Part shown: positions 56,835 to 57,300 of the stretch, piece by piece
Numbering within the stretch: position 1 is the stretch's first letter
Layout: every line of letters begins with the position of its first letter
Assembly (NCBI RefSeq): GCF_033153115.1
Contig: NW_026889765.1
Coordinates: 10,664,001 to 10,728,000 of the forward strand
Length of the DNA: 64,000 bases
Direction: 5' to 3'
Source: Saccostrea echinata
Lineage: Eukaryota
Program-made: the position numbers and the translations under genes
The notes under the pieces: generated by a model
What the model saw: the letters and a program-made list of their open reading frames with translations, nothing else
Told to the model about the DNA's origin: nothing
Databases searched by the model: none

Positions 56835-57300
56835 ATCTTATTTAAGCTCCCGATAATATTAATATAAACAATCTGGACAATTAATTTGAAATTTTAATTT
56901 GAAAACAATTGGAACCAAAGAGGGAACACCCGAGCTCTTTTGCTGCAAATCTTTCTTTTGGCTTTTAACGTTCTGATTTTCTTTCTTCTTTCGGCTCATG
57001 CATTTTGGGGAAGGGGGAGGGGGGTGGAATTTGAATTTCCAAAATGTTGGCCTCGGAGACAGATCTGAAGCGCTAGCATGGCGGACAAAATTGATTTTTT
57101 CAAAAACTTTCACGTCTTTCGGAACTTTCGGTCCTTTAAATACCCATTCCGTCAGTAATCAGGAATGGGTATTACCTTGGAACACCCATCCCGTCAGTGA
57201 TCAGGGATGGGAGTTTCTCGTCCAAAAAATTCTAAATTGTAAATGAAACATCCATTTAGAGGTGTCCGAAAGCTCCGTTGTCCTCTCTTTTCAAAATTCT
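56835..57300 (+). other. Conserved structured 3' flank (probable 3' UTR) of stathmin-like copy 2
   Basis: Aligns with the reverse complement of 48640-49108; hairpins at 57139-57173 and 57179-57217. Confidence 0.7.

Follow-up and report, generated by a model that had tools for sequence, protein, structure and literature searches.

The twin hairpins downstream of a small oyster gene proved to be one module of a conserved block of 348-425 nt in the 3' untranslated region (3'UTR), whose ends pair in the alignment to form a long-range closing helix, P1, and which very probably acts as a functional RNA structure. The window, by which we mean the whole 64,000-nt stretch of Saccostrea echinata DNA that we analysed, holds this element in the 3'UTRs of two related genes, A and B (Table 1). 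The initial annotation had presented the two hairpins as the element; they are real, but they make up about a fifth of a ~370-nt structure that is common to unrelated genes. What is unusual is this spread across unrelated genes as a whole exon. To our knowledge, covariation-supported RNA elements of such size are rare in animal 3'UTRs. A literature search, with most subscription journals outside its coverage, found no description of the element or of its host gene family, and none for oysters. Six M. gigas and C. virginica LOC identifiers and six other accessions led to no papers, and the supplements of PMC12551290 (tables of the top 25 markers only) and PMC8353863 do not list the gene identifiers.

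Both hairpins lie where they had been placed, in gene A and in its paralogue (Table 1). The first (H1) has the perfect 12-bp stem attributed to it, the 11-nt loops are present and read GUCAGUAAUCA and GUCAGUGAUCA, and the plus-strand copy carries G-U where the minus-strand copy carries G-C, as first described. The U-A to C-G difference between the stems is there too, but the swap represents one event only. Likewise, recurrence in the second paralogue (48733-48811) is real but is little evidence when taken alone, because the two genes share 90% identity along a 620-nt stretch made up of exon 2 and the entire 3'UTR, and only a fraction of 0.09 of their 43 four-fold sites differs. The 96-nt twin-hairpin region has a folding energy of -39.6 kcal/mol (z -5.1), a stability equalled by 0 of 200 shuffles, its antisense strand folds nearly equally (z -3.8), and a scan of the window for the hairpin pattern gave four matches against none expected.

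The hairpins had been said to fit no iron-responsive element (IRE), SECIS or histone stem-loop pattern, and a search of the window against Rfam agreed, returning 0 matches (best E 1.2, 17.8 bits over 56800-57400). An IRE has a hexaloop, CAGUGH, carried by a 5-bp stem with a bulged C below it. This assignment was ruled out: CAGUGA occurs within the 11-nt loop with its flanks unpaired, the variants CAGUAA, CAGAGA and CAGGGA are found, and Rfam gives no match. Two other candidates were dropped, namely kissing-loop pairing through UGAUCA, a palindrome broken in several loops, and an inverted DNA site presumed to be TEAD-like, for which support was confined to H1.

The 18 pairs of P1 are arranged as 12+1+5 and have a pairing probability of at least 0.8 in 30 of the 32 sequences folded singly, and further stems within the element span 12-17 pairs. 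In most twin-hairpin copies the element starts 63-78 nt past the stop codon and ends 14-35 nt before the poly(A) signal; 11 of the 14 copies have A[AT]TAAA 10-50 nt 3' of the element, compared with 0-2 of 14 for each 40-nt bin farther downstream. Some copies are rearranged: L092, L093 and L153 carry internally deleted elements of 180-210 nt that retain both P1 arms and amount to minimal versions made by nature, and L038, L107/L162 and L067 are family or chimera copies in which the element is split or replaced by insertions.

Table 1. Features of genes A and B and of their 3'UTR elements, in window coordinates
Feature	Positions	Strand	Basis or remark
Gene A, two palindromes taken to be CRE-type (TGACGTCA), upstream; likely promoter	56015..56072	+	
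Gene A, coding exon 1; 120-aa protein, start MGLFQSC	56133..56355	+	
Gene A, intron, 339 nt, GT..AG	56356..56694	+	contigs of three runs lack it
Gene A, exon 2, coding part with stop	56695..56834	+	
Whole structured 3'UTR element, copy A, 388 nt	56909..57296	+	alignment, fold z -3.4
P1, 5' arm	56917..56936	+	
P2, interrupted hairpin	57044..57079	+	
H1, 12-bp stem and 11-nt loop; likely the duplicated copy	57139..57173	+	fold, copy comparison
H2, 13 pairs with internal mismatch, 11-nt loop; similar to the lone hairpin seen in other clades	57179..57217	+	fold, copy comparison
AAAUUGUAAAU, Nanos-Pumilio-like site	57234..57244	+	unchanged in 14 copies
P6, short hairpin	57248..57265	+	one pair occurs as U-A, U-G and C-G
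P1, 3' arm	57271..57290	+	
AATAAA, likely poly(A) signal, gene A	57326..57331	+	
Gene B, two sites taken to be CRE-type, upstream	49881..49913	-	
Gene B, coding exon 1	49598..49820	-	
Gene B, intron, 349 nt	49249..49597	-	unalignable to gene A intron
Gene B, exon 2, coding part with stop	49109..49248	-	
Whole structured 3'UTR element, copy B, 382 nt	48652..49033	-	P1 arms 49025-49006 and 48677-48658
Twin hairpins, gene B (48811-48777 and 48771-48733)	48733..48811	-	fold, pattern match
AAAUUGUAAAU site, gene B	48704..48714	-	
AATAAA, gene B	48618..48623	-	

The element lies inside the mature mRNA, between the stop codon and the poly(A) signal, with the exact 3' end beyond the contigs' reach. 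The sequencing runs are RNA by our guess only, and their contigs are spliced: those of three runs (X3, X5 and X6) skip the gene A intron. Contigs one difference from the window span 56700-57004, 57026-57237 and 57028-57292, with coverage stopping near 57300, and a paralogue's 392-nt contig links the end of the coding sequence to the hairpins. The poly(A) site does not appear to lie upstream of the hairpins, which spliced contigs cover and which, with the rest of the larger element, precede the poly(A) signal. Nor are the hairpins absent from orthologous UTRs, represented outside the S. echinata genome by contigs of organism labels B and C only, as a contig from a run labelled C spans both hairpins with 17 differences.

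Genes A and B form an inverted pair, each with two exons and encoding 120 aa. Searching the genome with exon 1 gave 43 matches, 21 of them full length with 66-100% identity; longer relatives in the family reach 160-164 aa, and open reading frames are intact in 14 of 14 twin-hairpin genes. Named homologues were found in Saccostrea, Crassostrea, Magallana and Ostrea only, where they are multicopy and nearly all 'uncharacterized'. The label 'stathmin-like', given to these genes at the outset, serves as a lead, but there is no Pfam Stathmin match and the hhalign probability is 11%. Pfam PF00836 does not match the host protein, a genome search with it finds other loci, none of the host family, and a PDB search gave no real match. 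A K..GGVA[FY]D stretch is common to the host protein and the oyster's own stathmin (hhalign probability 10-11%), and the Atlas neighbour cluster of the host protein (0.93) has Stathmin on 11% of its members. The host protein is predicted, with low confidence, to have a disordered first half and one long helix (residues 67-119). It resembles STMND1 and stathmin in Gly2 with a nearby Cys, in the K..GGVA[FY]D stretch, in a Pro-Pro linker and in the single long helix, and the STMND1 N-terminus MGCGPSQ can be set against MGL[FL]QSC in the hosts (available text of PMC11238091). Unlike the stathmin family, the hosts lack a Pfam Stathmin match, measure 120-164 aa, are multicopy and have named relatives only in oysters. 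It is plausible that the family is stathmin-derived. Stathmin genes not linked to the host family rise during gametogenesis according to PMC3348941. Among loci L022-L035, the coding sequence of L022 is 95-97% identical to those of L023, L024, L025 and L028 and its intron aligns to none, which, together with the conflict between coding and UTR trees, points to gene conversion limited to exons (perhaps templated by RNA) or to strong constraint on synonymous sites.

Tandem TGACGTCA palindromes, which we take to be CRE-type sites, and a TTGTTGTTAG-like stretch make up a compact promoter conserved throughout the family, 160-aa paralogues included. At least one exact TGACGTCA site is found in 14 of 14 twin-hairpin genes and two are found in 12 of 14; the palindromes lie within ~130 nt of the start (171 in L026) in all 14, and occur in distant paralogues too. 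Similar TGACGTCA pairs, followed by an ATG and a donor site, precede four loci outside the family (L089, L090, L086 and L084). Such pairs, which occur in repeats too, are only suggestive of a promoter shared with non-family hosts.

We searched the 923-Mb genome for further copies. Searches with the element ends and three divergent copies gave at least 36, at least 34, at least 30, 29 and 58. The hairpins do not belong to a high-copy transposable-element repeat, another origin considered at first: the loop core has at least 21 exact matches at 14 loci, all 14 behind an intact copy of the gene that A and B represent. A high-copy transposon or MITE end is likewise disfavoured for the element, whose copies are few and, in every case with an identified host, occupy the terminal exon in sense orientation. 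About 50 loci carry the whole or partial element, a figure that includes local profile matches, several assembly duplicates and several broken copies. They are dispersed over at least 11 contigs, their flanks are mostly unalignable, and profile matches to the element were absent in reversed controls. The P1 3' arm pattern gave 0 matches in metagenome contigs and 0 in viral contigs. Distant paralogues whose proteins are 30-45% identical retain the element, and the profile search did not detect it in the oldest, MGLLHSC clade (L149, L150, L152 and L155) or in L154, L067 and L075. No orphan full-length copy appears among the matches listed for the element ends and three divergent copies, and partial copies with no identified host are L158, L109/L110 and L039. 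The last of these (L039:1440-1664; G000 C16:10729223), 1.3 kb past the window end, is a 5'-truncated element with three hairpins and no gene directly upstream. In L109:8300-8515 and L110 just the final 45-70 nt of the element are present, twice in tandem and 157 nt apart.

Unrelated hosts share the element, which is absent from the parent gene of one group of them, ASPM. It ends five genes built of ASPM IQ-repeat exons. In one of these, L089, the exons are 79-83% identical to, and ordered as in, the full ASPM gene on contig C25, downstream of which the element was not detected; it was also not detected in the stretches around other ASPM fragments (L132-L140), canonical stathmin and the second PF00836 locus. 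The annotated L089 product of 465 aa ends one exon before the element exon, into which L089 contigs are spliced with removal of five GT..AG introns, and a 604-nt contig of organism label C matches the L089 element exon over 419 nt. Ten further host loci (L082-L087, L091-L093 and L111) are multi-exon, Lys/Glu-rich and uncharacterised, with repeated short exons and a terminal element exon. A profile of the 120-aa family did not match the Lys/Glu-rich hosts, and kinship of the chimeras' 5' exons with the Lys/Glu-rich hosts was rejected as low-complexity similarity only. As the simplest history we infer an origin of the element in the stathmin-resembling family, followed by spread through terminal-exon capture. 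About ten partial duplicates of ASPM IQ exons occur in all (L089, L090, L094, L104, L107, and G000 C16:23.0M, C16:23.4M, C6:15.3M, C6:15.75M and C54:44.15M), some of them chimeric genes that are spliced, carry new 5' exons and have intact reading frames.

The clades differ in their hairpins. Those with an 11-nt loop number two in 14 copies and three in the truncated L039 copy. Other clades have either lost the hairpin or possess just one, which shares the lower stem and has a loop of 3-10 nt of unrelated sequence, and the single-hairpin clades carry an extra long hairpin upstream that is missing from the twin clade. L041 and L042 have U-G where H1 has U-A and H2 has C-G. By this comparison the stem is therefore old and the loop clade-specific, and the twin is, as far as aligned copies can tell, a tandem duplication of an older hairpin with variable loops. 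We infer that stems matter more than loop sequence. The proposal of an RNA control element thus survives as an RNA-level 3'UTR structure under selection, but the shared 11-nt loop, put forward as its conserved feature, does not reach beyond one clade, the hairpin having been tandemly duplicated to between one and three copies.

Comparison of the copies shows the signature of purifying selection on the element. Over 91 pairs of twin-hairpin copies, which are paralogues of one genome and in some cases assembly duplicates, mean differences come to 0.274 for four-fold sites and 0.359 for introns (0.414 when shuffled); within the element they are 0.044 for the twin stems, 0.081 for the loops, 0.040 for P1 and 0.193 for the remainder. 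Parsimony on the 14 copies gives 0.24 changes per site for stems (50 columns), 0.45 for loops (22 columns) and 0 for the 11-nt motif AAAUUGUAAAU, against 1.01 for other element columns (255) and 1.1 for four-fold sites (29). The coding and element (UTR) trees reject each other, and the copies are one-genome paralogues; gene conversion may therefore inflate similarity.

Covariation beyond phylogeny is apparent in P1, where a tree of 31 copies (L050 dropped as misaligned) has four both-side pairs and three same-branch compensations, for which two null models give P 0.016 and 0.009. Among 12 single-hairpin copies, pairing holds in 95% of cells and both-side changes affect 17 of the 60 pairs, a count reached by 0 of 500 shuffles, which ignore relatedness, and compared with 0-6 in slid controls. 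The twin clade covaries weakly (3 of 60 pairs, which 35 of 500 shuffles reach), and across copies a clean change of both pairing partners is seen in neither twin stem. Departures from pairing in the twin stems are six to G-U, one to A-C and four to other mismatches, the G-U excess being partly built in because the structures were predicted on the sense strand.

Among the best-kept 9-mers of the element is AAAUUGUAA, found in 30 of 37 copies. UGUAHAU likewise occurs in 30 of 37 and the perfect Pumilio consensus UGUAHAUA in 8 of 37; the window copies read UGUAAAUG, short of the full consensus, and the motif is absent or altered in 6-7 of 37 copies, the C25 clade included. The Pumilio match was noticed post hoc, in an AU-rich context and among several motifs tried, and the 8-mer AAAUUGUA turns up in 1.6% of shuffled elements. 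The probability that the motif is unpaired (0.48) is barely higher than the element mean (0.41); it is unpaired in the A3 consensus and paired by RNAalifold in the twin-hairpin alignment (A2). Musashi-type sites, present in only 5 of 37 copies, were set aside.

In the available text of PMC4995099, the Drosophila hunchback (hb) NRE2 RNA crystallised with Nanos and Pumilio opens with AAAUUGUA, the oyster 8-mer being identical to its first eight bases, and the full Pumilio consensus is no longer required once Nanos is present. Nanos prefers A/U-rich bases before UGUA, and the 3' half of the Pumilio site is relaxed (PMC4995099 and PMC11981137, both in part). With a Nanos response element defined as A/U-rich bases then UGUA (PMC4995099, same text), AAAUUGUAA qualifies in 30 of 37 copies. 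The hunchback and Cyclin B elements are alike in their 3'UTR location, and the imperfect 3' half of the Nanos-dependent CycB site resembles that of the oyster motif; the oyster element differs in having one site only, set in a large fold, with G as its last base in the window's clade, and GUUGU, which precedes the hb site, lies downstream in the oyster element and is paired in P1 (PMC4995099, same text). In oysters, nanos marks primordial germ cells and is expressed in germ cells or early embryos (available text of PMC12551290).

Our main reading, which we hold at a probability of roughly 0.45, is that the element combines a helical scaffold with Pumilio/Nanos repression for translational control. 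The 348-425-nt domain, closed by P1 and with the twin hairpins as a tandemly duplicated arm, would bind a double-stranded-RNA protein through its helices, leading to packaging or transport of the mRNA, and an exposed AAAUUGUAAAU, close to the poly(A) tail, would attract Pumilio together with Nanos, leading to repression and deadenylation. Its probable place of action would be germ cells or early embryos, the sites of nanos expression in oysters (PMC12551290, same text).

It is rather unlikely that the element serves 3'-end formation or stability, with P1 bringing the stop region beside the poly(A) signal and so shortening the effective UTR or shielding the tail. Its regular spacing from stop and signal in most twin-hairpin copies and the P1 arms retained in the deleted 180-210-nt versions would suit such a role, but the conserved internal hairpins and the fixed AAAUUGUAAAU would go unexplained, and a short UTR would be less costly than a long one that has to be looped out. 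We consider it unlikely that the function resides in the pair of identical 11-nt loops, acting as tandem binding sites of a single protein that reads the loop. The loops change at 0.45 per site against ~1.0 at unconstrained sites in the 14 copies, their positions G, AG and AUCA are nearly fixed, and the truncated copy has three such hairpins; elsewhere, however, the hairpin is single with unrelated loops or lost, yet P1 and AAAUUGUAA persist. Tandem duplication would explain the identical loops, and conversion between adjacent repeats could maintain their likeness.

Quite unlikely is a zip code alone, directing mRNA to the cortex, centrosome, cilium base or spermatid with no Pumilio/Nanos control. 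The parent ASPM gene is without the element, and ASPM mRNA localisation in mammals and flies is co-translational and, in the available text of PMC8595238, not described as 3'UTR-driven; even so, mRNAs localise to centrosomes in molluscs (same text), and the hosts resemble microtubule-related proteins, being ASPM fragments or an MG..C-starting protein with one long helix near stathmin-bearing clusters. We regard as improbable a mobile-element remnant or DNA palindrome that has no RNA function and was carried by duplication and homogenised by gene conversion. Such a passenger would fit the copies on at least 11 contigs, several of them broken, the unalignable introns and flanks of the window genes beside 95% identical coding sequence, and the conflict of coding and UTR trees. 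It is opposed by the low copy number, the sense orientation in the terminal exon wherever a host is identified, compensatory changes across 350 nt, conservation above that of four-fold sites, hosts with introns and the lack of an orphan full-length copy among the matches listed.

A broader extension of the Pumilio/Nanos reading is conceivable, though doubtful. The tandem-CRE promoter and the Pumilio/Nanos-controlled terminal element exon might form a portable cassette with exchangeable coding exons, so that germline or early-embryo genes would be born ready-regulated. Among such genes would be those for truncated ASPM spindle proteins and for dozens of membrane-anchored proteins derived from stathmin, with co-localised mRNAs that shape asymmetric divisions, and the element would be the transferable zip code of a molluscan mRNA regulon.

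The bicoid 3'UTR localisation element of Drosophila spans several hundred nucleotides and many helices, its structure kept by compensatory changes. The oyster element is likewise a large multi-helix 3'UTR domain with compensatory changes, but it has no sequence likeness to that of bicoid, which belongs to one gene, whereas the oyster element is common to unrelated genes. Staufen binds long-range 3'UTR duplexes, to which the 12+1+5-pair helix joining the 3'UTR ends and the further stems of 12-17 pairs are comparable; the oyster element differs in being strongly conserved in sequence too. As with the histone stem-loop, SECIS and the IRE, one RNA element serves many mRNAs, but the oyster element is ten times longer, has no Rfam match and is shared through common descent of the terminal exon. 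By analogy, it is akin to the large structured 3'UTR control elements of flies, and it is a member of no family tested.

The copies make up a natural mutation series (one to three hairpins, deletions, loop swaps) which, together with the unrelated hosts, tests whether a gene that captures a terminal exon thereby acquires a post-transcriptional programme in full. Should the element exert germline or embryonic control, it would offer a way into the study of how spiral-cleaving embryos sort mRNA and would supply germ-cell work in shellfish with a regulatory part.

Elsewhere in the window, a cluster of several transporter-like genes on both strands, presumably nucleoside-transporter-like (SLC28/CNT), occupies 1600-45800 and adjoins genes A and B, and satellite-like repeats of 160-170 nt lie at 28900-36200 and 43900-45700.
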